A DNA stretch of 57,152 nucleotides from Minisyncoccia bacterium (lineage in GTDB: Bacteria; Patescibacteriota; Minisyncoccia; Phycocordibacterales; DATDWN01): positions 1 through 57,152 of the forward strand of contig JBAQUS010000006.1 of assembly GCA_049297675.1 (NCBI GenBank), given 5' to 3'. A program made the position numbers and the translations under genes. Of this stretch, positions 1 through 43,052 are shown piece after piece (position 1 is the stretch's first letter; every line of letters begins with the position of its first letter). The notes below the pieces were generated by a model, which did no database searches, was not told the DNA's origin, and worked only from the letters and a program-made list of their open reading frames with translations.

Positions 1-119
1 TCCTGGGGTCTTTTCGTCTAACTGCAGGTAACCGGCATCTTCACCGGTATTGTATTTTCACCGAGCAAATCCCCGAGACAGTTCTCCAGTCATTATACCA
101 TTCGTGCACGTCGGAACTT

Positions 120-417
120 CATTACTCGCTATCGCTCGTATCACGATACCAATATACGAATTAGTACGAATGACACGAATAAATGCGAACCCTTTATTTC
201 TAAAGGAATGGACTATATCTTTATCCTACTTGGAAGCCGAGCTTCCAAGTAGGATATTTGCGTGTAGTCTCTACGGCGTCCTTCGACTTCGCTCAGGATA
301 AATCCCAAACTAATCTTAGGTTCCCTCGGTATTACCTTATTTAATTTCTTAAACTTAGGCTTCACCGATACAGCAAATTATCGAGATTGATTACTCAATC
401 AAGGGGCAAGTTCCGAT
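120..417 (-). mobile_element. group I intron-like insertion in 23S (between GGGTAAGT and TCCGAC, E. coli ~1945-1950 region), no ORF
   Basis: About 300 nt split an otherwise contiguous universal 23S block. It contains an R-like CCGTAGAGACTACA, a P8-like hairpin ATCCTACTTGGAAGC-TCGG-CTTCCAAGTAGGAT and an S-like AAAGATATAGTCC. AAGT is repeated at both junctions, so exact splice sites are ambiguous. Confidence 0.65.
143..190. repeat. ACGAAT-rich palindromic element, half copy, inside the 3' part of the 23S intron
   Basis: CACGATACCAATATACGAATTAGTACGAATGACACGAATAAATGCGAAC matches the arm of the intergenic ACGAAT elements. Confidence 0.7.
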
Positions 418-444
418 ACTTACCCGACAAGGAATTTCGCTTTA

Positions 445-803
<359 letters not shown>

Positions 804-980
804 CAGGGCTTATATAATCAATCTAGCGTCTTGCGACATTCAACTACTATATTTGACCTTCTGGCATTGGTCAGGCATCACCTCCTATACATCCACTTAC
901 GTGTTCGCAGGAAGCTGTGTTTTTGATAAACAGTTGCCAGAGATACTTTTGTTGCACCCTCGCACGCAGCACGAGGAAGT

Positions 981-1127
981 CCTAAATTGACCTAATTCCT
1001 AATTGACCTAAATAAATCTCAAATCCAAATATCCAAGCTCAAAACAAGAAATTACTCCTATCTTGAACTCGTCATTAAATAATTTGATCATTGTTTAGTA
1101 ATTAGAAAATTAGAAATTAGAAATTCC
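981..1127. repeat. AT-rich expansion insertion in 23S (AATTAGAAATT / AGGTCAATTAGG repeats)
   Basis: Inserted between conserved 23S blocks. The arms can pair using G-U wobbles. It is the reverse complement of the motif set at 2469-2552. Confidence 0.6.
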
Positions 1128-1697
1128 TTGTGCTACGCACAAGGGAAGCCTTATTCCGAAGTTACGGCTGCTTTTTTGCAGAGTTCCTTGGGGATCTCTC
1201 ACTCGTTCGCCTTACTCTACTCGAGCTGACTACCTGTGTCGGTTTACGGTACGGATTTCACGAAATTAAGCTTAGAAATTTTTCTTGGAAGCGTGCTTTG
1301 TACAATCCCCTTTGACGTATCGCCAGGTTTAAATACTACTTGGTATTATCATTTAAGAAAGTGTGCGGATTTACCTACACAGCTACCTTACAGTACATAC
1401 TCAAATCCAATAATGAGCTGTACATACTACCCTCCGTCCTTCCATCGCATTTCGCAAAAGTGCAGGAATATTAACCTGCTGTCCATCGGCTGCGGCTCTC
1501 GCCATTGCCTTAGGCCCGACTAACCCTGCTCTGATTGACATTGAACAGGAAACCTTAGTCTTTCGGCGCGAAGGGTTCTCGCCTTCGTTGTGGTTACTTG
1601 TGCCAACATTCTTACTTCGCAACGCTCCAGCATGGGTCACCCCTTTGCCTTCAGTGCAGATGCGAATACTCTCCTACCACTGCTCGTACCTCGCTAC

Positions 1698-1805
1698 ACG
1701 ATGCCAATATACGAATTTATGCGAATGAAACGAATATTCGTACACTTTTCGTAAGTGTATTTACATTCGTTTTATTCGTATGTTTATTCGTATCATTCGT
1801 ATCGC
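1698..1805. repeat. ACGAAT-rich palindromic element, full copy, inserted inside 23S rRNA
   Basis: ACGATGCCAATATACGAATTTATGCGAATGAAACGAAT...ATTCGTATCATTCGTATCG sits between conserved 23S blocks and is collinear with the intergenic copies. Confidence 0.8.
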
Positions 1806-2468
1806 AAAGTGAGGCACGAACAATCCTCAGTTTCGGTACTATGTTTAACCCCGATTATTTGCGGCGCAGAATCTCTTACTGAGTGAGCTGTTACGCTATC
1901 TTTAAAGGATGGCTGCTTCTAAGCCAACCTCCTCAGTGTCAGAGAAATTCCACCACCTTAAGTGTACTTAACATAGATTTAGGGACCTTAAATAGAGATC
2001 TAGGCTGTTTCCTTTTTGACGTACGGAGCTTAGCCCCCGCCGTCTAACTGCCGTATTATAATCCTGAGTATTCGGAGTTTGATAGGTTTAGCGATCTTTC
2101 GACCTGTCCAAACCTTCCAGTGCTCTACCCCTCAGGGGATCATACGACGCTAGCCCAAAAGCTATTTCGGAGAGAACCAGCTATTACCAGGCTCGATTAG
2201 CTTTTCACTTCTTATCACAAGTCATCCCAATGTATTGCACGGCATATGGGTTCGGGCCTCCCTTTTGATTTCTCAAAAGTTCACCCTGCTCATAACAAGC
2301 TCGCTCTGGCTTCGGGTCTAATGCATGCGATATATTCGCACTATTCATACTCGGTTTCCCTGCGCCTCCATCCGGCAAAGGATTTAGGCAAAACCGCATA
2401 CATTAACTCGTTGGCTCATTCTTCAATAGGCACGCCATGACCGTCACGTCTCGCTGAACTCGACGTAC

Positions 2469-2552
2469 GGAATTTCTAATTTCTAATTTCTAATTTCTAA
2501 ACGAATTTATTTAGGAATTAGGTCAATTAGTAATTAGTCATTCCGTTGTGTC
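2469..2552. repeat. AT-rich expansion insertion in 23S (GGAATTTCTAATTTCTAATTTCTAATTTCTAA...AGGAATTAGGTCAATTAGTAATTAG)
   Basis: Tandem AATTTCT units followed by the AGGTCAATTAG motif. Reverse complement of the insertion at 981-1127. Confidence 0.6.
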
Positions 2553-2630
2553 GAATACAATGAGACGCAACGGCGCTGACTCCTTGTAAGCATATGGTTT
2601 CAGATCTATTTCACTGTCCTCATCGGACTT

Positions 2631-2667
<37 letters not shown>

Positions 2668-2878
2668 ATCTCAAAATATATTTAGCCTTACCGCTTTAGT
2701 TGCGGCAGATTCCTCCGAGCTATTCGTGTCTCGAAGTACTCAAGAACAGAAACAAAGAAGATTTTTTATTTTCACCTACAGGACCATTACCTTCTAGGGT
2801 CGTGCTTTCCAGCACATTCGGTTAACAAAAAATTTTGTAACTTCTCTCATAATAAATTATGACGTTTCTGCCTTACAA

Positions 2879-3014
2879 CCCCCCCGAACTAACTTTGCCA
2901 TCGTTCTGTTTTTTCAAAACGACACCATTAATTAATTTATGTCTTTACCAAAATTTATTTAAAGAAAATAATTTTGATCAGAACATAAAAACAATGGCAA
3001 AGTTAGTTCGGGGG
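2879..3014. repeat. CCCCGAACTAA long hairpin element inserted in 23S 5' domain
   Basis: CCCCCCGAACTAACTTTGCCATCGTTCTG...CAGAACATAAAAACAATGGCAAAGTTAGTTCGGGG, a 136-nt hairpin. The copy at 3543-3677 is near-identical. Confidence 0.8.
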
Positions 3015-3449
3015 TTTGGGCTCTTACGCTTTCGCTCGCCGCTACTTACGCAATATTGTTCTTACGAACATTGTTTTCTTTTCCTTCGGGTACTGAAATG
3101 TTTTACTTCCCCGAGTGCACATCATATGTAATTCATATGACGACGACATATAGTCGCCAGGTTTCCCCATTCAGAGATTTACGGATTAACGGTTGCTAGG
3201 CACCTCCCCGTAACTTATCGCAGCCATGCTACGTCTTTCATCGCTATTTTGAGTCAAGGCATCCACCATACGCTCTTAAATTTCCCATTAGGAAATTTAA
3301 AAACCACTAACTTGAAAACTGCGACCACTCGCAGATTCAAGTTATTTTGCTCAAACTAATTATTAATTAGTTTGAGAATTTACTTTATCCTGTTACATAT
3401 TATGAATTTATCCGCAACAAAGTTGCAGTTCGAATTATGTAACAGTTTT

Positions 3450-3497
3450 ATCCCGTTAGAAATCTGAAACTTTAGTTTCAGTTATTTCGCACGGGAT
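3450..3497. repeat. CCCGTTAGA-family mini element (48 nt)
   Basis: ATCCCGTTAGAAATCTGAAACTTTAGTTTCAGTTATTTCGCACGGGAT has the same termini and layout as the 49-nt copy inside argS. Confidence 0.7.
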
Positions 3498-3542
3498 CTG
3501 TTCTACATTCCTACAATCAGAATGCAGAACTGTTTTACTTTA

Positions 3543-3677
3543 CCCCCGAACTAACTTTGCCATCGTTCTGTTTTTACAAAACGTAATCACCATTACTTTA
3601 ATATTCAAGCTAGATTTATACATTAATTATTTAATCTAGGTCAGAACATAAAAACAATGGCAAAGTTAGTTCGGGGG
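3543..3677. repeat. CCCCGAACTAA long hairpin element in the 23S upstream spacer
   Basis: The arms are near-identical to the copy at 2879-3014, but the AT-rich loop differs. Confidence 0.8.
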
Positions 3678-3924
3678 TTTTACTTTCCATCTACATTTTC
3701 CGAAAAGACCCCGAACACGAATGTCCGAAATTCTTAAAAATGTGATGGCATGAACTCCTAACAAACTTGCGGTTCGTTTCGGGGAATATTTTCAAGTTAC
3801 TTACAGAACATGTTAACGAAAAATCGCTCATTTCAGAGCGATTTTTCCGACAAACACCTAACTAGGCGTTTATCTAAATCGCTGTGAAATTAGGTTAATG
3901 TTTAACATATCTGTGATGTTCTGG

Positions 3925-5031: not shown

Positions 5032-5604
5032 CTAGAGGTTGCCAAGCTTATTGAGGACGATTTTATGTGGATAATCCAATATGTCACGAGTAAGCTTGTC
5101 AAACATACTTATCCTGTATTTGAAGTCATTTGTTGAAAAATAAGCATATTTTAGCTCTTTTCCAACCTCAGATTCGAGTATTTTTACCGCTTTTTCTAAA
5201 CCAGCCTTTTTTATTGCATCACCAACCACCAAAATGTCTACCCTACTCTCGGGATCTTGAATAAAAATTCCTGCAGTTAGTATGAGCTTCAGTGACCCCG
5301 CCTTACTTAGATTTTTTATTATCATATTTTCACTTAGAGGTTCTAGATTAACCAGAAAACTACGCAAAGCTCTAAGTTCTAAGAATTGTGTGTTTAGGCT
5401 ATACCCATGCTTTCCTTTGATTTTTCTTTTTCTGATTAGTGACATCTTCAGAAGATTTGGCATTTCTTTTTTGACACTTGTAAGATCGGATTTAGTTCTT
5501 TCAACAATTTCTTTCATATAAAAAACATGCTCATCATTAAACAGAAAAAGCCTCAGTATTTTAACTTTTGTTTCGCTCCCAAATAATCTTGCTAGTGTTT
5601 CCAT
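5032..5604 (-). CDS. hypothetical protein with N-terminal winged-helix-like segment
   Basis: 190-aa ORF containing KVKILRLFLFN...MKEIVERT. Its ATG abuts the 3' end of a CCCGTTAGA-family element. Confidence 0.5.
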   Translation of the reverse strand: METLARLFGSETKVKILRLFLFNDEHVFYMKEIVERTKSDLTSVKKEMPNLLKMSLIRKRKIKGKHGYSLNTQFLELRALRSFLVNLEPLSENMIIKNLSKAGSLKLILTAGIFIQDPESRVDILVVGDAIKKAGLEKAVKILESEVGKELKYAYFSTNDFKYRISMFDKLTRDILDYPHKIVLNKLGNL

Positions 5605-5705
5605 TCCGTTAGAAATAAAAGATCATCTATTTTTTGTGACTCCAAATCTTGTAATTAAATTTATCTGATTTTAGTAATTATAATCTCCGTTATTTCTAAC
5701 GGGAC
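5603..5705 (-). repeat. CCCGTTAGA-family element (~100 nt) ending at a start codon
   Basis: Reverse strand reads ACTTGTCCCGTTAGAAATAACGG...TTATTTCTAACGGAATG. It has the same 5' flank, ACTTGT, as the efp copy. Confidence 0.65.
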
Positions 5706-5966
5706 AAGTCCTAGATATTATAATCATCTTTTGACTAAAAGCGATAGATTGACCCTATATAAGTTTCGTGTCAATTTTTTCAGCAAAAAATTCCCCTAGG
5801 TCGGACCTAGGGGAATTTCGTATTTCTAACTTCTTACTTCTATTTTAGTGTAACTTGTCACAGGTTTTGGACTTGCCGTCGCTCGTCCAAACCTGCGACC
5901 CCGCCTCGGCTATTTTTCTGCTGAAAAATTATGCCTCCGGCTCAAAGTTACCTTAAAAAGCTTCGC

Positions 5967-6979: not shown

Positions 6980-7086
6980 CGATACCAATCTACGAATTCA
7001 TACGAATTTACGAATAGTTAGTTACCCTTACGAAACGCACATACGAATTATTCGTATCATTCGTTTTCATTCGTATATTGGTATCG
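6980..7086. repeat. ACGAAT-rich palindromic element, full copy, 7 nt upstream of the rplJ start
   Basis: CGATACCAATCTACGAATTCATACGAATTTACGAAT...ATTCGTTTTCATTCGTATATTGGTATCG, with terminal inverted repeats of about 18 nt. Confidence 0.85.
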
Positions 7087-12163: not shown

Positions 12164-12237
12164 CCCCCGAACTAATCAGTGTGAACAAAATCAAAAAGAA
12201 AGTCAGTTGGTGATTACACACACTGATTAGTTCGGGG
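12164..12237. repeat. CCCCGAACTAA hairpin element (74 nt), intergenic
   Basis: CCCCCGAACTAATCAGTGTG...CACACTGATTAGTTCGGGG. Confidence 0.8.
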
Positions 12238-16137: not shown

Positions 16138-16222
16138 CCACGAATGACCCACTAATGAAATCCCACGAATTTTACGAATAATGCATTTCATTCGTTATGA
16201 TTCGTGAGAGCCAATTCGTGGG
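16138..16222. repeat. ACGAAT-family variant element (CCCACGAAT...ATTCGTGGG)
   Basis: CCCACGAATGACCCACTAATGAAATCCCACGAATTTTACGAATAATGCATTTCATTCGTTATGATTCGTGAGAGCCAATTCGTGGG. Confidence 0.6.
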
Positions 16223-16269
16223 TGATTGGTGGATATATTTAATTGATAAATAATAACAAACAACAATGA

Positions 16270-16391
16270 ATCCCGTTAGAAACCGCGGTCGCTAGTAAAA
16301 TTATTAGCAATATGTTAGAAAATTATTAAATAATTAATATAGGAACGGGGAAGTGGTTAAAATTTGACCGCGACCTGTTTCTAAACGGGAT
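16270..16391 (+). repeat. CCCGTTAGA-family element (122 nt) ending on the recA start codon
   Basis: ATCCCGTTAGAAACCGCGGTCGC...GACCGCGACCTGTTTCTAAACGGGAT followed by G, flanked by ATGAA on both sides. The ssb copy is near-identical. Confidence 0.85.
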
Positions 16392-17490
16392 GAACAAGAA
16401 AAAAACACCAAAAGCTGAGCGAGAACCAGTTGGAACAGCCAATGTTGAAAACACCTTGCGTGAAATCCGAACCAAATTCGGGGATGACTCCATTATGATG
16501 CTCGGCGACAAACCCCACGTAGATGTTGATGCCATCTCAACTGGATCCATTGGACTAGACGCCGCCTTGGGTGTTGGTGGGCTACCACGTGGAAGAATAA
16601 TAGAAATTTTCGGACCGGAGTCATCAGGTAAAACTACCCTATCTCTTCATGTTGTAGCCGAAGCCCAAAGAAAAGGTGGAATTTGCGCATTCATAGACGC
16701 AGAACACGCCATGGATCCAGAGTATGCCAAAAGGCTTGGAGTAAAGACTGATCAGCTACTTATCTCCCAGCCGGACAACGGCGAACAGGCACTTGAAATA
16801 GTAGATTCTCTGGTCCGTTCAGGAAAGATAGATGTTATTGTTGTTGACTCCGTTGCCGCCCTTACCCCAAAGGACGAGATTGAGGGAGATATGGGTGCTC
16901 ATCATGTCGGAAAGCAAGCAAGACTTATGTCACAGGCTCTTCGTAAGCTCACTGCCATCGTTGCCAAATCAAAAACAATAGTCATTTTCCTAAACCAAAT
17001 CAGAATGCAAATCGGTGTGATGTTTGGAAATCCTGAAACCACTCCAGGAGGCAAGGCTTTGAAATTTTACACTTCTGTACGACTAGATATAAGAAGAATC
17101 GCCCAGATAAAAAAAGGTGAAGAAATAATGGGAGGAAGAATCCGAGTGAAGGTTGTAAAAAACAAAGTAGCCGCACCTTTTAAGCAAACAGAGTTTGACC
17201 TTATGTACAACGAAGGCATCTCTCGCGAGGGTGAACTCATTGCTCTCGGTGAAAAAATGGGAATCATTTCAAAATCAGGAACATCATACTCATACGGGGA
17301 AGAAAAACTCGGTCGTGGTTACGATTCTACCCGTCAGTTTTTGAAAGACAAAGCCAATAAAAAAATCGCAGACAGTATTCTGAAAGACATCCGCGAAGGC
17401 CTCAAGAAAAATGGTGGATCAGTTGTTAGTCCTTCGTCGGACTCAGGATCTGCGACAAGTGGTGGTGAAAGTGAATCAAGCAGTGAGTAA
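16390..17490 (+). CDS. recA: recombinase RecA
   Basis: 366 aa with Walker [10 protein letters not shown] and [18 protein letters not shown]. Collinear with RecA over the full length. Confidence 0.97.
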
Positions 17491-18507: not shown

Positions 18508-18548
18508 GTAGAAAATATGGCTTAAATAAGCTATATTGTTTCCTACTT

Positions 18549-18650
18549 GTCCCGTTAGAAGTAGAGATGAAATTCTTGATACGGGAAATTTCAAATTAAA
18601 ATTTAGCTTTAATCCATTTGGTCAAAAGCCATATGGACTTCTAATGGGAT
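18549..18650 (+). repeat. CCCGTTAGA-family element (~100 nt) ending on the efp start codon
   Basis: ACTTGTCCCGTTAGAAGTAGAG...GGACTTCTAATGGGAT followed by G. Confidence 0.65.
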
Positions 18651-19670: not shown

Positions 19671-19777
19671 CTTCTAATTATAACAAAGACACTAATGATT
19701 GCTGAAGTGTATTTTTTTATCTAAATCCAAACTTGCAAAAAAATGTGGTAATGGTATAAAAATCAAGGAGGTCTAAA

Positions 19778-20273: not shown

Positions 20274-20714
20274 TTAGAAAGGAATGTCTTCGGGGTTAAT
20301 CTCCTCTTCAGGATACTCAATAGTATCCAGTGCTTTCTTATGTTCTTCTGGTGAAGGAGCTTCATAAGTGCTTGGTGTACTACCCTCTTTCTTTGGACCA
20401 AATTGGATTCTGTCGGCGATAACTTCAGTTCTGTATTTCTTTACGCCAGAAGCATCGTCCCAGCTCCTAGTTTGCATTCTTCCTTCGATAAGAATGGAGT
20501 TACCCTTTTTCATGTACTGACCCACAATATCAGCCTGGCGACCAAAAACTACAATATTATGAAAATCCACATTTTCTTGTTTTACTCCGTTCTTATCTTT
20601 CCAAACTCTATTTGTAGCAACTCCAAAGCTTGCCACCCTTACTCCCGAAGGTAGAGCCTTCAACTCTGGGTCTCTTGTCAGATTTCCTATGATTATGGCT
20701 TTGTTGAGATACAT
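20274..20714 (-). CDS. ssb: single-stranded DNA-binding protein
   Basis: MYLNKAIIIGNLTRDPELKALPSGVRVASFGVATNR... with an acidic C-terminal tail ending DIPF. The start is placed at the ATG that abuts the repeat element, because the 12 upstream ORF codons are element sequence. Confidence 0.9.
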   Translation of the reverse strand: MYLNKAIIIGNLTRDPELKALPSGVRVASFGVATNRVWKDKNGVKQENVDFHNIVVFGRQADIVGQYMKKGNSILIEGRMQTRSWDDASGVKKYRTEVIADRIQFGPKKEGSTPSTYEAPSPEEHKKALDTIEYPEEEINPEDIPF

Positions 20715-20829
20715 CCCGTTTAGAAACAGGTCGCGGTCTGGTAAGACCACTTCCCCGTCCCTATTATTAATTACTTATAACCTAACATATACCAATTAAT
20801 TTTCAAGCGACCGCGGTTTCTAACGGGAT
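20713..20829 (-). repeat. CCCGTTAGA-family element (117 nt) ending on the ssb start codon
   Basis: Reverse strand reads ATCCCGTTAGAAACCGCGGTCGC...GACCGCGACCTGTTTCTAAACGGGAT followed by G. It is flanked by ATGTAT on both sides. Same subfamily and same orientation relative to the gene as the recA copy. Confidence 0.85.
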
Positions 20830-20868
20830 ACATGGTATTTGTAAAGTTAAAAGTTTATAAAGTGGATA

Positions 20869-23690: not shown

Positions 23691-23822
23691 CGACACTAAT
23701 CCACGAATTCATGCGAATGATACGAGGTTAGATACCCTTGACGAATGGGCATACAAATTTATTTGTAATATTCGTATGCAATTCGTATATTGGTATCGCT
23801 TCATATTCGTAATTCGTGTCGA
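23691..23822. repeat. ACGAAT-rich palindromic element (composite copy) 7 nt upstream of the metG start
   Basis: CGACACTAATCCACGAATTCATGCGAATGATACGAGGTTAGATACCCTTGACGAATGGGCATAC...ATTCGTATATTGGTATCG plus an extra arm ATTCGTAATTCGTGTCG. Confidence 0.8.
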
Positions 23823-26214: not shown

Positions 26215-26252
26215 GCGATACGAATATACGAATCATGCGAATGATACGAATT
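26215..26252. repeat. ACGAAT-rich element, half copy, abutting the M16 peptidase start codon
   Basis: GCGATACGAATATACGAATCATGCGAATGATACGAATT. On the reverse strand GTATCGCA is followed directly by the ATG. Confidence 0.75.
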
Positions 26253-29550: not shown

Positions 29551-29594
29551 AGATAAATTATATCACATTTTGTCATACTGATTCAAAACCCAAA

Positions 29595-30221: not shown

Positions 30222-33200
30222 TTATTTTATATTAATAGTAATAGAGACTTTTGAGTCACTGACTCCAAACTCGTGTTTTTGGGGAACATCTGCGAAAGTA
30301 ATTTTTTGGGTTTGTGTTGGGATTTTTATCATATTATCAAATAAATTTATTATTTTTTCGATATTTTCATTAGCATTTACCACAAGCTCTATCCCTTGAC
30401 TTGGGTTAAGTCCTTCATTTTTTCGAGCATCTTGTATACCACGAATAAAATCCCTGGCAATTCCCTCCTCTTTCAAATCCTCTGTTATGTTTGTATCTAA
30501 CCAAACAAGAGCTTCAATATTTTCATCAAAAACAACTTCCTTAACATTTATCTCATCCTTGATTATGTTCACTAATTCTTCCTCAAATTTTGATTTTTGA
30601 TTTTTGATTTTTAAACTTTTTAACGGTTGCCTAACTTTGTGTCCTGACTTCTGTCTTAACTCCAGTGCTTTTGTGACAATCTCTCTTACTACTATCATAT
30701 CTTCCAAAACTTTTGTGTCTACCTCTCCCGCTTTTGGCCAATCCTCCAAATGCACGCTCTTTTTCTCCCCTCCCACCTTTTTATAAATCTCCTCTGCTAA
30801 AAAAGGGGTAAAGGGAGCAATAAGTTTTGAAAATTCAAGTAAGACTAATCTCAGGTAGTGAGAGGCAGCTAAACTGACTTTTTGATCATTGGATTTCAAC
30901 CTTTCTCTTGAGCGTCTTACATACCACGTAGAAAGATCATCAACAAAGTCTAAGATCGGTCTGGAGGCCTTATCAAGTTCATATTTATCTAGATGATTTG
31001 TTATATTTATTGCAAGTTCATTTAGACGAGTATTTATCCATCTATCTAGAATTGTTTCCTTTAATTGAGACTCCTCTATCGCTGGATACATTTCGTAAAG
31101 TGAAAGTATGTTGTGAACCTTCAAAACAAGTTTTTTTGAAACTTCGTCCACTCCTTTTTCTGAAAAGTTAAAGTCCTCTGCTTTGACAAGCGGAGATGAA
31201 ACAAGATAAAACCTCAAAACATCTGCACCATATTTATCTATTACTTCCATAAGGTCCGGATAATTCTTCAAACTTTTGCTCATTTTCCTGCCATCCTCAG
31301 CCAATACTAATCCATTTACCAATACGTGTTTGTAAGGACTTTTATCAAATAATCCAACCGATAATACTAGAAGTGTATAAAACCATCCTCTAGTTTGATC
31401 CAAACCCTCAGCAATAAAATCTGCTGGAAAAAATGAACTATTCTCTTTATCGAATTCCTCCTCGTTCTCAAGTGGGTAGTTTTGCTGTGCAAAAGGCATT
31501 GAACCCGAGTCATACCATGTATCAAAAACTTCTGGCACTCGTTTAAGTTCTCTCTTTCCATCGCTATCCATTACAACTATCTCATCGATGTACGGCCTAT
31601 GTAAATCTAGCTCATAGTTTTCATTGTGTGGAATCGGAACAAAATCAAATTCTAGTAAACTTCCTGTATCATAGTTTGAATTATCAATTAAGTATTTTGA
31701 TCTCTTACTATCAGCTCCCTCTATAACCGCTTCTAAAACCTCATGTCCAATTCCATGTGTCACAACCAAAATGGTTTGGTTTTTATGTTTGCTATCTATA
31801 TCGTATAAAAACTCTCCAAATCTTTTTTTAGAATCTAAATAGCTTTCTCCGTTTGGTACTGGAGTTTCATATTCTTTCATGTATTTTTCCTCATAATCCA
31901 AGAAATCTTGGAACTTCTTTCCTTGAAAATCACCAAATCCATACTCTGCTATTCTTTCATCAAAAATTATTTTTTCACTTTCCAAACCAATTTTATTAGC
32001 AATTATCTCTGCCGACTCTTTTGTTCTTAAAAATGGCGAAGAGTATATGGCACCAATATTAATATTAGAAAACTTTTCTGAAATTTCGGCAATTTCTTTC
32101 TTACCTCTTTCAGTCAGATGAATACTGTCCTCCACCTTAGCACTAACGACTCCACTTAGGTTACTTTCTGCCTGACCATGTCTCAAAATAATAAAATGGT
32201 TCTTGTTACTTTTGATTCTTTCTTTGAGTTCATTTATGCTCCCACAAACAAATCTTTCGCCTGTTTGTTCTTTGGAAACACCGTCATAAGGAGTTTCCCA
32301 AACTGGTATAGGTGCACCCCAATATCTAGAACGTGAAATATTCCAGTCCCTTGCCCCTTCAAGCCACTTGCCAAATCTACCTTCACCTATTTCTTTTGGG
32401 GTCCAAGAAATATTTTTATTAATTTCAACTAACCTATCTTTAATTTTTGTCACATTAATAAACCATGAAGTAGTAGCGTAGTTTAGAAGCGGGGTATTAC
32501 ATCTCCAGCAATGTGGATATGAATGAACTATTTTTTCCTTTGCAAACAAAACATCCTTTTTAGCTAAGTATTTTATTATTTCTACATCAGCCTTTTGATG
32601 ATCTTCTTTTGGTTTTACTTTTTGTCCTGCAAAGTCAACCACTTCGCTTTTGAATGTCCCATCTCTATTTACATGCTGAACAAATGGCAAATTATTTTCT
32701 CTTCCTAAATTCATATCGTCTTCTCCAAATGCGGGTGCAATATGTACCACTCCAGTTCCGCTATCTATTGTAACAAAATTGCCATCATATACTTTCCATC
32801 CATTTTTCCTATTGGGAAAATCCACATTTTGATAGCAGTCAAAGACTGGCTTGTATGATTTTCCTAGTATTTCTTTTGGGTCAACACTCCTTATTATTTT
32901 CCCTCCAGTTTTAAAAACGAATGGTAATCTTTCTTTTGCTACAATATATTTATTACCTTCAACCTCACCTTCAACTTCTACATATTCAACTTTTGAGTTT
33001 ATAGCCAAGGCTACGTTTCCTGGAAGGGTCCATGGTGTAGTAGTCCAAGCAATGAGATATGTTTTGGGTGAATCGACTAATTCAAACTCCACATAAACCG
33101 AAATGTCAGTAATATCCCTATAACCCTGATTGACTTCAAAATTTGAAAGTGTCGTCTCGCAATGTGGACAGAACATCATTGATCTGAAATCCTGATGAAC

Positions 33201-33722
33201 CAAACCCTTCTTATCGAGTTTTTTAAAAGACCACCAAACAGACTGTGTATAGCTTGGCTGCATGGTTAGATAACTATTCTCCATATCCACCCATCTTCCC
33301 GATCGAGGTATTATTTTTTTCCACTCGTCAGCATAACGCAAAACCGCATTTCGTGAAGCTAAGTTAAACTTCTCCACACCATATTCTTCAATGTCTTTTT
33401 TACTCTTCAGTCCTAACTCCTTCTCCACAAGATTTTCAATGGGTAATCCATGACAATCCCACCCCCATCTTCTTAGCACTCTCTTTCCCTTCATAGTCTG
33501 ATATCTAGGAATAATGTCTTTTATCGTCCCGGGCAAGATATGTCCATAATGCGGAAATCCGGTGGCAAATGGTGGTCCATCAAAGAACACAAAATTCCCA
33601 TTTGGTGCATCTTTATCTAAGGTTTTCTGGAAAATCTGATTCTTATTCCAAAAATCCAGAACCTCTTCCTCTTTTTTAGCTATCTCTGACTTATTATTTT
33701 TTAAATTTTCCTCATTTGACAT
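30222..33722 (-). CDS. ileS: isoleucyl-tRNA synthetase carrying an internal histidine-phosphatase (PGAM-like) domain
   Basis: GFPHYGHIL (HIGH), KMSKS and WCISRQ-like WNISRSRYWG motifs. A ~190-aa RHG-phosphatase domain is inserted between ...GSINELKERIK and ELDLHRPYIDE. The start is set at MSNEENL, although the ORF is open 11 codons further upstream. Confidence 0.95.
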   Translation of the reverse strand: MSNEENLKNNKSEIAKKEEEVLDFWNKNQIFQKTLDKDAPNGNFVFFDGPPFATGFPHYGHILPGTIKDIIPRYQTMKGKRVLRRWGWDCHGLPIENLVEKELGLKSKKDIEEYGVEKFNLASRNAVLRYADEWKKIIPRSGRWVDMENSYLTMQPSYTQSVWWSFKKLDKKGLVHQDFRSMMFCPHCETTLSNFEVNQGYRDITDISVYVEFELVDSPKTYLIAWTTTPWTLPGNVALAINSKVEYVEVEGEVEGNKYIVAKERLPFVFKTGGKIIRSVDPKEILGKSYKPVFDCYQNVDFPNRKNGWKVYDGNFVTIDSGTGVVHIAPAFGEDDMNLGRENNLPFVQHVNRDGTFKSEVVDFAGQKVKPKEDHQKADVEIIKYLAKKDVLFAKEKIVHSYPHCWRCNTPLLNYATTSWFINVTKIKDRLVEINKNISWTPKEIGEGRFGKWLEGARDWNISRSRYWGAPIPVWETPYDGVSKEQTGERFVCGSINELKERIKSNKNHFIILRHGQAESNLSGVVSAKVEDSIHLTERGKKEIAEISEKFSNINIGAIYSSPFLRTKESAEIIANKIGLESEKIIFDERIAEYGFGDFQGKKFQDFLDYEEKYMKEYETPVPNGESYLDSKKRFGEFLYDIDSKHKNQTILVVTHGIGHEVLEAVIEGADSKRSKYLIDNSNYDTGSLLEFDFVPIPHNENYELDLHRPYIDEIVVMDSDGKRELKRVPEVFDTWYDSGSMPFAQQNYPLENEEEFDKENSSFFPADFIAEGLDQTRGWFYTLLVLSVGLFDKSPYKHVLVNGLVLAEDGRKMSKSLKNYPDLMEVIDKYGADVLRFYLVSSPLVKAEDFNFSEKGVDEVSKKLVLKVHNILSLYEMYPAIEESQLKETILDRWINTRLNELAINITNHLDKYELDKASRPILDFVDDLSTWYVRRSRERLKSNDQKVSLAASHYLRLVLLEFSKLIAPFTPFLAEEIYKKVGGEKKSVHLEDWPKAGEVDTKVLEDMIVVREIVTKALELRQKSGHKVRQPLKSLKIKNQKSKFEEELVNIIKDEINVKEVVFDENIEALVWLDTNITEDLKEEGIARDFIRGIQDARKNEGLNPSQGIELVVNANENIEKIINLFDNMIKIPTQTQKITFADVPQKHEFGVSDSKVSITINIK

Positions 33723-33884
33723 AACTTTTTTTATAAACTTATGTTGTGCACGCAAGATCGGAAAAGATCACCATACTAGGTTTTGTCCTTGTGGGGACTT
33801 TTCTTATATTATAATTTACCAATCAAATCATTCATAAATATTCTTATTCTTAAATTCTCAAGAATTTTGGAATTATAGTTTTCT

Positions 33885-34125
33885 TGTATTAAAAATCGTC
33901 CTCACCAAACAAGCTTTACTTATTTTGCAAGGACGATTTTCAAACCGTGGTACCACCTTGGTTTATCCTGCGTAGCCTTTTTGAACTGCGAAGTTTTAAC
34001 GTAGCAGTTGGCGAAGCAGGAACTCTTACAGCTATAACGGGCTTGCCCGTCGGGGTCTACGGCAACAATGCTTTCTTCCCGAGACTTGGGATTGATAGTC
34101 CCTCAAACGTCTTTAAGAAACAATA
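33885..34125 (-). promoter_or_regulatory. T-box leader (tRNA-sensing riboswitch) upstream of ileS
   Basis: The reverse strand has the F-box-like CCGTTA, then the T-box sequence AACCAAGGTGGTACCACGG (33960-33942), which overlaps the terminator stem GAAAATCGTCCT...AGGACGATTTTT followed by a T-run. Confidence 0.8.
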
Positions 34126-34134: not shown

Positions 34135-35856
34135 TTACATTTTTTCTGGAACTTTAATAGCAAGAAGACTTAGCCCATCAGTCATAACCTGAGCAAAAGC
34201 CTTAGTTATGTAAAGCTTGTAAGACGATACTGGATCATTTTCGTCTATTATTTTCCCACTTGCATAAAAACTATTAAACTCCCCGGCTAACTCTGTCAAA
34301 TATGTCACTAAGTAGTGTGGAGCATATTCCCTACCCGCTTTCTCTACCACAGAGAAAAATCTCTCTAAATATCTCTCCAGATTTGTTGTCTTCCAATTCT
34401 CAGGTACTTCGGCTACTGCCTCAGTATCTCCAGCACCATTAGTGCTTTCGACTTTTTTCAAAATTGAATTTGCGCGAACTGCAGAATACTGAAGATACGG
34501 TCCGGAGTCACCCTCAAATGAAATAGACTTTTCAAAATCAAAGACAATGTCTCCTCCTATAGCCTGACGAAGTATTGAGTACTTTATTGCACCTATCGCC
34601 ACAATCTCTGCCAACTCCTCAATGTCAAGGGTGCCCCTTGGCATTTCGTCCCTATTTTTCATCTTATCTAAAACTTTGGTTTTTACTTGATCAATTAAAT
34701 CTTCTGCAGAAATGATTGTGCCTGTTCGAGATGACATTTTTCCACTTGGAAGTTTTAGAATACCATGAGAGAGATGATGGAGCTTCCTTTTAAGTTCTGG
34801 AAACACTTCTCCAATAGCTACTTCGACTACCTTGAAAAATGAATCCTGTTCATTTGCTGTAACTGTTATCGATTTGTCATAGTCAAACCAATCTTTCTTT
34901 ATTTGAGCCAAGCCTAACTCTTTTGCCTCGTATGTCGGCAATCCTTCGGAGTTCAGAAATACTCTTGTATGAGTTTTTGGCTCAAAATTCTCACCTTTAA
35001 AAATTATTGGCACTCTTTTTATCCCGTTAGAAACAGACTCTTCCTTAGAGTCGCCGTTTCGCACGGGATCGCCCTTTTCAAAAATACGACCAATATTTTC
35101 TCTGACTAATTCCTGCCCGATTTCGCCACTTTCACTTTCAAAAAAATGGAAGTCGAAATGACTATCAAGTCTTTTATAAAGAGCCTCAAAACCCTCAAGT
35201 GATTTTTGCCTACCATCTTCGTAAATCTCACTAATTTCTGGATCTGATTCCTCGTATATTTTTTTATTGATTTCTAGTATTTCAACTTTAGCTTTCTCAT
35301 TTTCCTCGAACTCTTTATAACCAAAAGCATAAGCTACCTCTAAATTCTTGCCTGCTTTTATTGCCCAAACTGCCATAGCAATGTGAAGACCAACATCTCC
35401 GTGATACGAGGCTACTTGTATTTCTGCACCATTTGCTTTTAGAATTCTCGAAACAGATTCTCCAATGCAGTTACCCATAAGATGTCCTATATGAAATTCT
35501 TTAAATGGATTCGGTTGTGAGTGCTCAAAAAATATCTTTTGGCCCTTAAAAATTTTTCCTTCAAATTTCTTACCTATTTCATCCTTAAAATAATTTGCAT
35601 CAAAAAAGAAGTTCAAAAATCCCGGTCTAGCTATATTTATAGCCGTTTGTGGAAGACGGTCTTCCACAAATTGGGATTTTATATTTTCGGCGAGGTCGAG
35701 GGGTTTTTTACCAAGCTCTTTTGCATACACCATGGCAACATTTGTTGAATAATCCCCCATTTCAATATGAGTTGGATAATCCAAAACAACCTTAGGATCT
35801 TTTACTCCTGACTCTTTTAGAATTTCAATTATTTTTTGTATTATTTCTTCTTTCAT
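34135..35856 (-). CDS. argS: arginyl-tRNA synthetase
   Basis: SQPNPFKEFHIGHL (HIGH) and a C-terminal DALR anticodon-binding region. The start is placed at MKEEIIQ, abutting the repeat element. The gene contains an in-frame 49-nt repeat copy. Confidence 0.95.
   Translation of the reverse strand: MKEEIIQKIIEILKESGVKDPKVVLDYPTHIEMGDYSTNVAMVYAKELGKKPLDLAENIKSQFVEDRLPQTAINIARPGFLNFFFDANYFKDEIGKKFEGKIFKGQKIFFEHSQPNPFKEFHIGHLMGNCIGESVSRILKANGAEIQVASYHGDVGLHIAMAVWAIKAGKNLEVAYAFGYKEFEENEKAKVEILEINKKIYEESDPEISEIYEDGRQKSLEGFEALYKRLDSHFDFHFFESESGEIGQELVRENIGRIFEKGDPVRNGDSKEESVSNGIKRVPIIFKGENFEPKTHTRVFLNSEGLPTYEAKELGLAQIKKDWFDYDKSITVTANEQDSFFKVVEVAIGEVFPELKRKLHHLSHGILKLPSGKMSSRTGTIISAEDLIDQVKTKVLDKMKNRDEMPRGTLDIEELAEIVAIGAIKYSILRQAIGGDIVFDFEKSISFEGDSGPYLQYSAVRANSILKKVESTNGAGDTEAVAEVPENWKTTNLERYLERFFSVVEKAGREYAPHYLVTYLTELAGEFNSFYASGKIIDENDPVSSYKLYITKAFAQVMTDGLSLLAIKVPEKM
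35031..35079. repeat. CCCGTTAGA-family mini element (49 nt) in frame inside argS
   Basis: ATCCCGTTAGAAACAGACTCTTCCTTAGAGTCGCCGTTTCGCACGGGAT is translated as DPVRNGDSKEESVSNGI. Same architecture as the spacer copy at 3450-3497. Confidence 0.75.
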
Positions 35857-35973
35857 CCCGTTAGAGATAGGAAACATTAGTTTCCGTAATTAATTTGGCT
35901 ATATAATTTAAATTACTAATATTAAGAATATACATCTTTTTTTAAAAAACAACTGGGTGATCTCTAACGGGAT
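35855..35973 (-). repeat. CCCGTTAGA-family element (119 nt) ending on the argS start codon
   Basis: Reverse strand reads ATCCCGTTAGAGATCACC...AATTAATTACGGAAACTAATGTTTCCTATCTCTAACGGGAT followed by G, with ATGAA on both flanks. Confidence 0.85.
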
Positions 35974-35985
35974 TCATAATTTAAT

Positions 35986-36252
35986 TCATGGTGACCTGTA
36001 TATATCCTTGCGATAACCTATTGCAAATAATACTATCTCTTGATTCTGTAGACGAAAAATACCACGATATACACGCGTTATTCTAAAGGAAAAAACTTTA
36101 TCGTCTACAAAGCCTTTTAACTTTTTAGTATGGAGTTTCGAATCATACATATCTTTTATCAATAGTTTTTCTTGTGATATAAGTAAGATTTTATCTTTTT
36201 TGGACAAAGAACTAGAACTTTTTTTATAATTCTTTGTCTTAAGAAGAATCAT
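35986..36252 (-). CDS. RelE/ParE-family type II toxin
   Basis: 88 aa with KKLKGF...FSFRITRVYRGIF......VLFAIGYRKDIY, directly downstream of a small antitoxin-like ORF. Confidence 0.7.
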   Translation of the reverse strand: MILLKTKNYKKSSSSLSKKDKILLISQEKLLIKDMYDSKLHTKKLKGFVDDKVFSFRITRVYRGIFRLQNQEIVLFAIGYRKDIYRSP

Positions 36253-36256
36253 GAAT

Positions 36257-36484
36257 TTAAAATTCTTTTAGAGAAGACTTGTATGCAGAAAGGATTTCAT
36301 TTTTATTTACATAGATGTCTAAACTTTCAGTTGGTGTCTTAGATATAGTAATGCTTTGATTTATTACAAACTGACGCAGGGATGCATTCACCACGTCAGT
36401 CAAAGATAAACCCAACTCTTTTGCTAAACTTTGAGCCTGTCTTTTCAAATCCTTTTTAGTTTTGATTAAAAATGTTGTATCCAT
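36257..36484 (-). CDS. RelB/DinJ-family antitoxin
   Basis: 75 aa with an RHH-like N-terminus, IKTKKDLKRQAQSLAKELGLSLTDVVNASLRQFV. A 4-nt gap separates it from the toxin gene. Confidence 0.65.
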   Translation of the reverse strand: MDTTFLIKTKKDLKRQAQSLAKELGLSLTDVVNASLRQFVINQSITISKTPTESLDIYVNKNEILSAYKSSLKEF

Positions 36485-36516
36485 ATACTAAAGTATATAT
36501 AAACGGATAATTGATG

Positions 36517-36930
36517 TCAAGCTAAATTCACATTCTTGTTTATTATTTCCTCCGCTTCACTGACATTATTATACCTAAATAATCTCACGTTGGGATTACC
36601 CTCAATCATTCCTGAGAGACTTTTTCCTTCCTCTGGTTTATAAAGACAAATAATTGGTATTCCTTTTGATTCAGCATAAGCAATCTCATAACCAACACCC
36701 AAACTCGGTGTTGAAACCTCCGCTACTACTATGTCACTCATATCTATTAGACCAACATCCCGCTTGTAAATCTCACTAGTTGGAAGACTGCTCCCTTTAT
36801 ATGTCAAAGTTGAATCCCCAACAAACTCTGTCAAAACTTCTCCTTGTTTTTTTAATAAACCAATGATGGAGTGATAAATCTCTTGATGCTCCCAACCCCC
36901 TCGTATTGACCCTGAAAAATAGATTTTCAT
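36517..36930 (-). CDS. DNPH1/Rcl-like 2'-deoxynucleoside 5'-phosphate N-hydrolase (nucleoside 2-deoxyribosyltransferase superfamily)
   Basis: 137 aa with MKIYFSGSIRGG...VLTEFV...DIVVAEVSTPSLGVGYEIAYA, which is collinear with the Rcl/DNPH1 signature (FCGSIRGG...VVAEVTQPSLGVGYELG). Confidence 0.75.
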   Translation of the reverse strand: MKIYFSGSIRGGWEHQEIYHSIIGLLKKQGEVLTEFVGDSTLTYKGSSLPTSEIYKRDVGLIDMSDIVVAEVSTPSLGVGYEIAYAESKGIPIICLYKPEEGKSLSGMIEGNPNVRLFRYNNVSEAEEIINKNVNLA

Positions 36931-36932
36931 AT

Positions 36933-37280
36933 TTATCTATTGTCACCATCTCCTCTTAATACACCACGTTCTTTTCTTGAGTTTAATTTTTCCATATTTG
37001 CCTTAGCAACTTCTTCGAGACTAAGTCCCAGATCATGCGACAAAACAGCCAAATACCACATAACATCTCCTAGCTCAAGTTTTATTGACTCTTTTCTCTC
37101 ATCAGTTATTCCTCCATCACCATCATCACCTCGGAGCCATTTTTTGATTTTACCCATTACTTCTCCCACCTCATCACCTAATCCAAATGCTGGATAAATA
37201 ATATTGTACTTTGGTGGATTAACCCTAAGTGGAACAGCCCATTTTTGATATTCGTTTAATTGCATAATTTTTATTTTCAT
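36933..37280 (-). CDS. MazG-like all-alpha nucleoside triphosphate pyrophosphohydrolase
   Basis: 115 aa with GLGDEVGEV...KLELGDVMWYLAVLSHDLGLSLEEVAKANMEKLNSRKERG. Confidence 0.8.
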   Translation of the reverse strand: MKIKIMQLNEYQKWAVPLRVNPPKYNIIYPAFGLGDEVGEVMGKIKKWLRGDDGDGGITDERKESIKLELGDVMWYLAVLSHDLGLSLEEVAKANMEKLNSRKERGVLRGDGDNR

Positions 37281-37398
37281 CCCATTAGAGATAGGAAATC
37301 AAAGATTTCCGTAATTAATTGATAAATTTGTATATAACCACATTACTCTAGCATTATTACATGATCTCGAAAATGAATTTTTTGATCTCTAACGGGAT
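37279..37398 (-). repeat. CCCGTTAGA-family element (120 nt) between glyA and the mazG-like gene
   Basis: Reverse strand reads ATCCCGTTAGAGATCAAAAAA...AATTAATTACGGAAATCTTTGATTTCCTATCTCTAATGGGAT followed by G. The 5' repeat contains the glyA stop codon, and the 3' repeat supplies the AT of the mazG-like ATG. Confidence 0.85.
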
Positions 37399-38582: not shown

Positions 38583-38839
38583 CCCGTTAGAGATAGGAAA
38601 CCTCTCAAGCGATTCTTGAGATAACGTTTACCCATACCAGTTTTTAAATATATCTCTCTTATTCTAGCATCATGATCATCCAAGCATGCTTCATAATATA
38701 TCACTTCGAATGGTTTATCTCTTCTGGTAAAGGTTGATTTCCCTTCGTTATGTTGCTTGAGACGTTTCCGAAGGTCATTTGTACTACCTGTGTACAATCT
38801 ACCATTTTTCTTACTTTTTAATATGTAGGTGTATATCAT
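38579..38839 (-). CDS. GIY-YIG domain nuclease (small YhbQ/COG2827-like type)
   Basis: 86 aa with IYTYILKSKKNGRLYTGSTNDLRKRLKQHNEG...YYEA....A..RE..LK. The stop TGA overlaps the glyA ATG (ATGA). Confidence 0.85.
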   Translation of the reverse strand: MIYTYILKSKKNGRLYTGSTNDLRKRLKQHNEGKSTFTRRDKPFEVIYYEACLDDHDARIREIYLKTGMGKRYLKNRLRGFLSLTG

Positions 38840-38862
38840 AACAGTGTGATCTCTAACGGGAT
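38581..38862 (-). mobile_element. CCCGTTAGA-family element carrying a GIY-YIG nuclease ORF (candidate autonomous copy)
   Basis: Reverse strand reads ATCCCGTTAGAGATCACACTGTT-ATG...(ORF)...GGTTTCCTATCTCTAACGGGAT followed by G. The 14-nt terminal inverted repeats are identical to those of the ORF-less copies at argS and mazG. Confidence 0.75.
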
Positions 38863-38866
38863 AAAT

Positions 38867-42954: not shown

Positions 42955-43052
42955 CACGACACCAATACACGAATGAAGACGAACGTACGAATGGGTTCAG
43001 AATTCTGAATTCAATTCGTGTCATTCGAGTATTTATTCGTAATTCGTGTCGC
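42955..43052. repeat. ACGAAT-family element (CACGAAT variant) upstream of secE
   Basis: CACGACACCAATACACGAATGAAGACGAACGTACGAATGGGTTCAGAATTCTGAATTCAATTCGTGTCATTCGAG...ATTCGTAATTCGTGTCG. Confidence 0.75.

Follow-up and report, generated by a model that had tools for sequence, protein, structure and literature searches.

The window analysed here (57,152 nt, positions 1 to 57,152 of contig JBAQUS010000006.1 in assembly GCA_049297675.1 of a Minisyncoccia bacterium) is AT-rich (38% G+C) and carries several copies of a short, hairpin-ended element, one of which lies at the translation start of recA (16390-17490, + strand). The recA copy, which contains no open reading frame (ORF), occupies 16271-16390 (+); its core of 118 bp (CCCGTTAGAAACCGCGGTCGC...GACCGCGACCTGTTTCTAAACGGG) is preceded by a T and closed by an A that is the first base of the working recA ATG (16390). 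Immediately upstream stands a decoy ATGAA (16266-16270, +), made up of the original A of the recA start and the left copy of a TGAA duplication (16267-16270), the right copy of which (16391-16394, +) supplies bases 2-5 of recA; the junctions read ACAACA ATGAA T CCCGTTAGAAACCGCGGTCGC...GACCGCGACCTGTTTCTAAACGGG ATGAA CAAG. As an insertion would predict, it is the decoy ATG that the native leader precedes, and the decoy opens an upstream ORF (uORF) of nine codons, ATG AAT CCC GTT AGA AAC CGC GGT CGC TAG, with its stop at codon 10, right after the 21-nt 5' arm; both features had been described correctly in a preliminary annotation made from the letters of the window (the sequence-only reading). 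The RNA of this copy has a predicted folding energy of -40.9 kcal/mol (z = -5.3).

A search of the window with the end motifs recovered seven full-size copies, with core coordinates 5605-5703, 16272-16389, 18551-18648, 20715-20827, 35857-35971, 37281-37396 and 38583-38860. Once each is oriented by its neighbouring gene, an ATG lies directly 3' of all seven, in accordance with the sequence-only reading, which had placed the copies exactly on start codons; the downstream genes include those for the Pfam families RecA, SSB, ArgRS, EF-P, SHMT and MazG. Besides the one at recA, ORF-less copies precede ssb (20714-20828, - strand, of the subfamily shared with the recA copy, with a decoy ATGTA at 20829-20833, a right TGTA at 20710-20713 and minus-strand junctions ACC ATGTA T CCCG...CGGG ATGTA TCTC), argS (35856-35972, - strand, with a decoy ATGAA at 35973-35977 and minus-strand junctions ATT ATGAA T CCCG...CGGG ATGAA AGAA), mazG (37280-37397, - strand), efp (18550-18649, + strand, with left junction ACTTGT and no recognisable duplication found) and an ORF of 190 aa (copy at 5604-5704, ORF at 5032-5604, - strand, with left junction ACTTGT after TATAAT-N7). 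The copy before glyA (38582-38861, - strand) is full-length and of autonomous type: its repeats CCCGTTAGAGAT...ATCTCTAACGGG bound a 278-bp core with a single ORF, overlooked at first, for an 86-aa GIY-YIG nuclease (38579-38839, - strand). The copies at 5605-5703, efp, mazG and glyA end on a start codon without the duplication, as had been reported, and only "AT" is common to both of their junctions.

The expected frequency of a 5-nt direct repeat by chance is 1/1024 per copy, and such repeats were observed in three of the seven window copies. All seven copies are at gene starts, compared with at most 24% expected even if ATGAA were the sole target and intragenic insertions were purged (p = 5e-5). 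Both comparisons exclude chance as the cause. Every window copy folds stably (z from -2.3 to -5.6), and the stem takes in the A and U of the real AUG.

Comparison with copies in other genomes (L-numbers denote the loci compared) defines the ends of the element as a covarying inverted repeat, Y-CCCGTTAGA-NNN...NNN-TCTAACGGG-R, in which four positions covary over 234 arm pairs. At position 0, just outside CCCG/CGGG, 131 copies have T·A and 89 have C·G; because this outermost base covaries between both ends, it belongs to the element. Positions 10-12, which were free in the search, are paired in 94-97% of cases with at least two pair types each, so that the inverted repeat is 13 bp long. Three size forms are found: full-length copies of about 280 bp with one gene, ORF-less copies of 100-130 bp, and mini-hairpins of 40-70 bp.

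An exact 4-nt repeat flanks 125 of 247 copies, versus 24 when partners are shuffled, and the commonest is TGAA. These repeats follow the target (TGAA, TGTA, TGAG, TGAC, TGGA, TGCG, TGCAA; off start codons TCAA, TTGA, TTTA, TAAA, TCTG). C...G-ended copies at start codons have the form ATGAA-C...G-TGAA, by which the host start is turned into GTG, and the first base of the rebuilt start codon is therefore the element's. The proposal that a terminal "AT" of the element joins the next G to form the start codon must accordingly be amended, only the terminal A being part of the element. Similarly, the direct repeats of 5-6 bp first described at recA, argS and ssb (ATGAA, ATGAA and ATGTA) are real, but the duplication within them is 4 bp (TGAA or TGTA); the apparent longer repeat is this duplication plus the original A coinciding with the element's terminal A. 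A 2-bp duplication with AT...AT ends is ruled out by L021, L036 and L035, where G or C, not A, precedes the terminal T. A general 5-bp duplication is ruled out by the C...G-ended arrangement ATGAA...GTGAA and by the numbers of copies with 4 bp (125) and 5 bp (6); a 5-bp duplication (TGCAA) is present at the L079 site.

The interpretation of the repeats as target-site duplications, already offered in the sequence-only reading, is borne out by their variation with the target and by an exact empty site. L052, in a close relative, is the empty site of the copy at L035, with flanks 93-98% identical and lacking the 118-bp element together with one copy of the repeat; the empty site predicted from L035 is 97.75% identical to L052 over 400 nt without a gap, and the ATG of the L035 decoy has later become ATC. 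A site that is occupied in three species (L038, L075 and L079) is empty in its orthologue L036. The element-free recA of L044 (ATGAACAAAAAG) opens with the same codons as the window recA, and the L053 orthologue of the 190-aa ORF has the same beginning (ATGGAAACACTAGCA) without the element. Thus, the recA hairpin is evidently one copy of a mobile element family, inserted with a target-site duplication. The recA, glyA and argS loci were identical in other assemblies of the source species, giving no presence/absence difference there, and an exact-protein lookup for ssb gave no match.

The product of the ORF in the glyA copy matches Pfam PF01541 over residues 1-68 (E = 1.1e-18, 67.7 bits versus a cut-off of 22.6). 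Its last six codons (FLSLTG, encoded by TTC CTA TCT CTA ACG GGA) are the right inverted repeat, and its TGA stop overlaps the glyA ATG (ATGA), the stop codon being supplied by the target. The protein collection searched contains more than 1400 homologues at E <= 0.001, and among the best 120 of those listed, most have a length of 86 or 95 aa and an identity of 69-86%. FLSLTG, with minor variants, ends all 21 of 21 aligned homologues, and the 95-aa forms start with MNPVRD (ATG AAT CCC GTT AGA GAT), that is, with the decoy ATGAAT and left repeat seen at recA and argS. Residues Y5, Y16, R24/R26, H30, E62 and N76 are invariant in 21 diverse homologues, and we take them to be equivalent to the catalytic residues of I-TevI and UvrC. 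With a dN/dS of 0.16 and an interrupted ORF in no copy examined, the nuclease gene is under purifying selection. Its nearest relatives of solved structure are the UPF0213 proteins BH0048 and EF2693 and Slx1, a structure-specific nuclease, with PDB matches to 1zg2 (E = 9e-9), 1ywl and SLX1; a Foldseek search with a structure model (pLDDT 88) returned 1zg2 and Slx1 (6sei) at TM 0.65 and a root-mean-square deviation of 1.9 Å, and the nuclease belongs to the Slx1/UPF0213 subgroup of the GIY-YIG superfamily. A search of IMG/VR for carriage by phages found distant relatives only (at most 45% identity).

Relatives of the nuclease are encoded at at least 536 loci in species-representative genomes; the best 80 of these are mostly in classes of Patescibacteria, with a few in Omnitrophota, Planctomycetota and other metagenome-assembled genomes, the taxonomic labels of which are as deposited. 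Nearly all of the ORFs scanned lie between CCCGTTAGAG... and ...CTCTAACGGG, most of them preceded by ATGAAT and followed by A|TGAA. With gene starts called from ORFs rather than annotation, 53 of 76 distinct full-length copies have an ATG or GTG directly 3', which opens an ORF of at least 60 aa in 48 of them; 47 shorter copies were found in the locus flanks and the window, and 28 of these adjoin a gene start. Contigs assigned by binning to Planctomycetota, Syntrophales, Omnitrophota, Bdellovibrionales and Scalinduaceae also contain near-identical GIY-YIG elements (L042, L046, L055, L056, L066, L067, L071, L076), owing to either horizontal transfer out of Patescibacteria or binning error.

The preference for start codons was assessed in metagenome contigs matching CCCGTTAGA-N85-115-TCTAACGGG, a pattern that is blind to the flanks and does not select for start codons; the sample comprises the first 120 exact-repeat matches listed, with 130 copies. 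Half of these copies (65/130) adjoin the beginning of an ORF that is 60 aa or longer, as do 48 of the 54 T...A-ended copies and 34 of the 35 copies with a TGAA duplication, the latter always as ATGAA (p = 2e-20). The supply of sites is quite different: the window contains 96 intergenic TGAA and 28 intergenic ATGAA sequences, compared with nine gene starts of the form ATGAA, the commonest start among its 52 genes. From these counts, targeting by sequence alone followed by loss of intragenic insertions predicts at most 24% of copies at starts. The T...A subfamily thus evidently has a strong preference for start codons, and for this subfamily the pattern noticed in the window is not an artefact of a small sample.

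The arrangement of the element's reading frames resembles that of coupled gene pairs. Of 65 full-length copies, 46 place the stop codon of the nuclease at +1 relative to the host start, and in 39 of 65 its TGA overlaps the host ATG or GTG, the classic geometry of translational coupling. Of 46 ORF-less copies that have a decoy ATG, 25 show no stop in the decoy frame from one end of the element to the other, compared with 6 and 0 of 46 for the other two frames (Fisher p = 8e-10). The open uORFs, 34-42 codons in length, finish either 4 nt short of the host ATG, at a TAA in the right repeat, or in an ATGA overlap (-4 or +4); in three further ORF-less copies the decoy frame continues in frame into the host protein. 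The encoded peptides are mutually unrelated except for the ends encoded by the repeats (MNPVR..., ...SLTG, ...CF), which rules out a small conserved peptide as the product of ORF-less copies and indicates that the conserved trait is translation through the element; by these counts the open frame is under selection.

The decoy ATG itself is probably the 5'-terminal AUG of the mRNA, because many of the target genes look leaderless. A Shine-Dalgarno-like motif precedes only 5 of 52 window ORFs, and in 21 of the 52 window genes, versus about 8 expected, a -10-like TANNNT begins 15 to 12 nt ahead of the ATG (for example 19671-19690, 29551-29570 and 47545-47565). This is the spacing of leaderless mRNAs, which appear to be common in the host organism. 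TANNNT is found at the same spacing before the decoy ATG in 38 of 77 start-codon copies of other genomes (p = 1e-15). To explain expression of the genes behind the hairpins, the sequence-only reading had proposed an internal promoter, RNA processing or ribosome shunting; these found no support, and from the family-wide data we infer instead that ribosomes start at the decoy ATG, translate the element, terminate, and re-initiate at the host ATG.

We estimate at about 0.7 the probability that the copies constitute a family of hairpin-ended DNA transposons that insert at start codons, are mobilised by means of the GIY-YIG nuclease, and leave the host gene expressed by translational coupling. The sequences show that T...A-ended elements insert between the A and TG of a start codon, mostly as A|TGAA, and duplicate 4 bp; the old A and the left TGAA stay as a decoy ATG behind the native promoter and leader, and the last base of the element joins the right TGAA in rebuilding a working ATG (GTG in the case of C...G-ended elements). 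According to the proposed model, the decoy would become the 5'-terminal AUG of a leaderless transcript, at which 70S ribosomes would initiate, unwinding the hairpin and translating it into either the nuclease or an arbitrary peptide of 34-42 codons. The ribosomes would terminate either at the overlapping TGA (AUGA) or, 4 nt short of the host AUG, at the TAA in the right repeat, and then re-initiate, which would explain how an internal AUG that lacks a Shine-Dalgarno sequence and is buried in a stem can work. Such coupling would maintain expression of the host gene, and the nuclease would be expressed at no cost of its own. The nuclease would drive mobility; it may recognise the hairpin or cruciform ends or the melted DNA of start sites and make cuts with a 4-nt stagger, and start sites would be recognised in some form.

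A more far-reaching proposal, for which we would give somewhat less than an even chance, is that these elements represent a new class of prokaryotic DNA transposon, of which the sole protein is a minimal Slx1-like GIY-YIG nuclease and which homes to the first nucleotides of leaderless genes, as a parasite that lives at translation starts almost without harm, is now widespread among Patescibacteria and has seeded inserts in proteins, in frame, and in rRNA genes. Such an element might find its target through promoter DNA melted by RNA polymerase or through the branched DNA of its own hairpin ends; it would borrow the host's 5'-terminal AUG, take its stop from the duplicated target, and return the ribosome to the rebuilt start.

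Several observations weigh against the model of nuclease-driven insertion and coupled expression. The 86-aa protein consists of the catalytic domain only, with no DNA-binding domain, and characterised GIY-YIG enzymes leave 1-2-nt 3' overhangs and are not known to make a 4-nt stagger or to join DNA; a transposase acting in trans is possible. The duplication is not constant in length (3 nt in 18 and 5 nt in 6 of the 247 copies). Only 17 of the 69 C...G-ended copies listed from metagenomes are at gene starts, and about half of the wider family, being C...G-ended, occupies other sites such as GTTTAC and TTGACA. The decoy is in frame with the nuclease in only 13 of the 23 ORF-containing copies that have ATGAAT. 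In the window, all three decoy-bearing copies stop early, after 9 (recA), 11 (argS) and 20 codons (ssb), and none of the three has a clear -10 box at the leaderless spacing; the coupling mechanism is evidently not intact in the recA and ssb copies.

The individual window copies differ in this respect. Coupling geometry is intact in the glyA copy. At argS, the single stop of the decoy frame (codon 12) is followed 6 nt later by an ATG that opens a same-frame ORF of 24 codons, ending at a TAA 4 nt before the argS ATG, so that a relay of ribosomes via the second ATG is possible. The ssb uORF ends at codon 21, no frame from the recA or ssb decoy reaches the real start, and the recA copy is a decayed member of the family with its uORF cut short. 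Read-through into recA is ruled out because the two ATGs are 124 nt apart, out of frame, with a TAG between them; an alternative genetic code is ruled out because ordinary window genes use all three stop codons. The genes recA and ssb might be expressed because ribosomes help to melt the stem and re-initiation is then de novo or by scanning, through processing by RNase III, or from a weak internal promoter; at recA, a terminating ribosome would at least melt the stem in which the AUG is buried.

The latter routes form part of a broader alternative, that genes behind ORF-less copies, recA, ssb and argS included, are expressed not by coupling but from a promoter in the AT-rich loop or after cleavage of the stem by RNase III. 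The early ends of the recA and ssb uORFs are in its favour, as are their stems of 21-23 bp, long enough for RNase III, and a promoter-like site (TTAATA-18-TAAAAT, 16334-16363) inside the recA copy. This site scores 9/12 in a region that holds 16 such sites versus 9.4 expected, and it has no conserved counterpart in the sister ssb copy, which rules out a conserved internal promoter. The GIY-YIG-encoding insertions, other than introns, reported in rRNA genes of bacteria from the Candidate Phyla Radiation (CPR) imply removal or tolerance at the RNA level (PMC11270868), and accord with processing. However, neither a loop promoter nor RNase III accounts for the maintenance of an open decoy frame in 25 of 46 copies, and this alternative is doubtful, though it deserves to be taken seriously. 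Another possibility is that there is no targeting of start codons, the element preferring TGAA (or T-rich 4-mers) and the start-codon insertions being merely those that survive or stay recognisable. Off start codons other 4-mers are indeed used (TAAA, TTTA, TTGA, TCAA), mini copies are found inside genes, and ATGAA is the commonest gene start in the window; yet neutral intergenic insertions should then outnumber those at start codons, given the supply of sites, and the copies are consistently co-oriented with the gene, which makes this explanation unlikely. A further reading of the hairpins, as vertically inherited cis-regulatory leaders such as attenuators or protein-binding sites, would fit their stable folds and their position at the 5' ends of genes in one orientation, but the target duplications, the unrelated downstream genes, the protein-coding member, the lack of an Rfam match and the element-free orthologues that begin with the same codons (L044, L052, L053, L036) all contradict it, and the empty site at L052 effectively refutes it.

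As for the source of mobility, the ORF-less copies could be ordinary miniature inverted-repeat transposable elements (MITEs) of a conventional DDE-type insertion sequence acting in trans, and the GIY-YIG ORF a passenger or a free-standing selfish gene. Terminal inverted repeats with a fixed short duplication are the signature of DDE transposition, several insertion sequence families make 4-bp duplications, and we know of no strand-transfer activity of GIY-YIG enzymes, which are hydrolytic nucleases; moreover, ORF-less copies spread by themselves, as near-identical pairs within one genome show (L008, L027 and the recA and ssb copies of the window). A passenger would not be expected to have its C-terminal codons in the right repeat and its stop codon made by the duplication, however, and the GIY-YIG gene is the sole ORF between the repeats in 76 distinct full-length copies from many lineages, with no longer version carrying another gene among the loci examined; we therefore regard a trans-acting DDE enzyme as rather improbable. 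A homing-like spread, in which the nuclease cuts start sites and microhomology repair copies the element from another locus, is more improbable still. GIY-YIG nucleases are classic homing enzymes, the repeat varies in length from 3 to 6 bp, some junctions are chimeric (ATGGA or ATGTA on the left, ATGAA on the right), and one gene start is occupied in three species (L038, L075, L079). Nevertheless, identical repeats other than TGAA on both sides (TGTA, TGAG, TGAC, TGGA, TGCG) are duplications of the target and not flanks of a donor, homing needs long flanking homology, which the unrelated occupied genes do not offer, and the 86-aa protein is without the DNA-binding domains of homing GIY-YIG enzymes.

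These apparently undescribed tiny mobile elements of ultra-small (CPR) bacteria have the inverted repeats, duplication and empty sites of an insertion sequence with MITE derivatives, and no known class of transposase (DDE, DEDD, HUH, serine or tyrosine) is encoded between the repeats, where the GIY-YIG gene is the sole ORF. In size, Correia elements of Neisseria are similar bacterial MITEs, with non-coding copies of 100-150 bp, terminal inverted repeats, a short duplication, co-transcription and hairpin folds. Correia elements duplicate TA, are thought to be derived from DDE elements and occupy varied intergenic positions; the present family differs in its autonomous partner that encodes only a GIY-YIG nuclease, its 4-bp duplication, its rebuilt start codon, and the many copies with an open frame running through them. 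Rickettsia palindromic elements (RPEs) are likewise palindromes that are translated in frame inside coding genes, as is a 17-aa mini copy in argS (see below), a resemblance that is functional only. To our knowledge, RPEs have no conventional transposase, and neither start-codon targeting, nor a member that encodes a nuclease, nor a duplication of 4 bp has been reported for them.

Free-standing GIY-YIG homing genes (seg and mob of phage T4, and ORFs fused to mitochondrial genes) are also selfish genes wedged at host genes and using host signals. The homing enzymes carry extra DNA-binding domains and act on a single long cognate site; their genes pass from allele to allele through homologous repair and are not known to be associated with inverted repeats or duplications. 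A bare catalytic domain of 86 aa between inverted repeats, inserted at many unrelated genes with 4-bp duplications, is unlike them, and assignment as a homing endonuclease gene is rejected on the absence of a DNA-binding domain, the many unrelated sites and the duplications. The stand-alone Slx1/UPF0213 proteins (YhbQ, BH0048) are the best matches in both sequence and structure. Slx1 cuts branched and stem-loop DNA, an activity that would suit hairpin-forming ends, and it works with Slx4 and has a RING domain; we know of no function of the bacterial UPF0213 proteins and of no link between them and repeats. Hairpin-forming short repeats and a small single-domain enzyme are shared with REPIN/RAYT and IS200/IS605 (including PATE), and a strand-specific step is hinted at by insertion in a particular orientation. 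REPIN/RAYT and IS200/IS605 rely on HUH tyrosine transposases and subterminal hairpins, make no duplication, and target short motifs or REP sequences rather than start codons; membership of either is ruled out because the element has no HUH gene and does have terminal inverted repeats and a 4-bp duplication.

The bypass cassette of T4 gene 60 and the mitochondrial "byp" inserts are comparable as mobile hairpin inserts with matching flanking codons that present an obstacle to the ribosome. They are bypassed by ribosome hopping within an ORF, unlike the present element, where ribosomes, on the evidence, seem to translate the insert and to re-initiate at the start codon. An integron attC site is ruled out by the reversed order of the boxes (GTTAGAR...YTCTAAC versus R''(RYYYAAC)...R'(GTTRRRY)), the housekeeping flanks (recA, ssb, argS) and the lack of an array. 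Rfam 15 gave no match on any copy at the gathering threshold over the whole window and none at E up to 1 in 35000-38900, and inspection by eye revealed neither hammerhead or other ribozyme cores nor a kink-turn in the mini copies. Full-text literature searches located no description of the element; the nearest report concerns GIY-YIG proteins in CPR rRNA genes that are encoded by non-intron insertions, seemingly "outside the context of homing" (PMC11270868). Those rRNA-gene insertions probably belong to the same family, and the elements may account for them.

If the nuclease mobilises the element, a GIY-YIG class would be added to the known chemistries of prokaryotic transposons, and at about 280 bp the full-length form would be among the smallest autonomous elements known. 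The rebuilt start and termination-reinitiation appear to allow essential genes (recA, ssb, argS, efp, glyA) to be occupied at low cost. There are consequences for annotation of CPR genomes, in the form of decoy ATGs, gene calls of 95 versus 86 aa, false N-terminal extensions and in-frame protein inserts. Leaderless initiation is suggested to be common in these uncultured bacteria, and the elements constitute natural experiments on it. The minimal nuclease, defined hairpin ends and defined 4-bp target may also be of use as a tool.

Mini copies lie at other kinds of site. The one inside argS (35022-35068, - strand; 45-nt core plus 2 terminal bases; fold z = -4.0) makes up 51 nt with its 4-bp duplication and reads in frame, adding 17 aa (PVRNGDSKEESVSNGIK) to the protein; of the 45 ArgRS homologues closest to it, about 40 are without the insert, and the same site is occupied in 4. 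Other in-frame mini copies are present at L020, L077 and L085. Another mini copy in the window (3451-3496, + strand; fold z = -5.6) lies upstream of the 23S rRNA gene, about 160 nt from its 5' end. This gene (1-3289, - strand) is cut by the window edge and contains two adjacent group I introns (190-431 and 442-679; Rfam E = 7e-18 and 4e-17); group I introns in the 23S rRNA gene are typical of CPR bacteria, and the gene with its two introns thus indicated a genome of Patescibacteria (CPR), as was later confirmed by database matches.

Several C...G-ended copies are located on promoters of the form TTGACA-N17-TAATAT, with regeneration of the -35 box. Copies at L111 (7080 and 9137), L150 (160), L160 (14116) and L183 (663) lie on TTGACA or TTGACC, with TAATAT, TATACT or TAAAAT 16-17 nt later and, at most of them, a duplication of TTGA (or TCAA on the reverse strand); these copies were evidently inserted into -35 boxes that were regenerated. 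Many other C...G-ended copies are in intergenic GTTTAC/GTAAAC without a -10 box at promoter spacing (L087, L098, L109, L114, L117, L125, L163 and others). Where a left duplication would be expected, ACTTG(T/C) is found at two window junctions (5704-5709 and 18545-18550) and at L118 (7475) and L162 (1831); the window junctions are preceded by TATAAT or TATATT plus 7 nt, and ACTTGT junctions yield a mini-ORF of three codons, TTG TCC CGT TAG, which ends in the left repeat. The glyA frame enters the left repeat of the mazG copy and ends at its TAG (...TTA TCC CGT TAG; 37389-37396, - strand), so that the element has replaced the last codons and stop of glyA.

The window also contains 30 occurrences of ATTCGTRNATT, versus 11 expected, often paired or inverted 10-80 nt before start codons, including the recA decoy ATG (for example 6987-7015, 16169-16179, 23698-23708, 26223-26233, 42649-42659 and 42964-42992), which may be the binding site of a regulator. 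A different family of hairpin repeats is represented at 3542-3678 and 12165-12237 by two copies with ends CCCCGAACTAA...TTAGTTCGGGG and arms of 19-26 nt that are 96-100% complementary, neither of them at a start codon. A T-box leader (33926-34116, - strand; 46 bits, E = 6e-9, below the Rfam gathering score) precedes a large ileS-like ORF (30222-33755). Finally, perfect inverted arms of 15 nt at 51659-51787 (AGCCTACTTCTAACA / TGTTAGAAGTAGGCT), which adjoin the ATG of an ORF at 50891-51655 (- strand) and hold the GTTAGAAGTAG motif of the element inside-out, may be a remnant or a rearranged copy of it.

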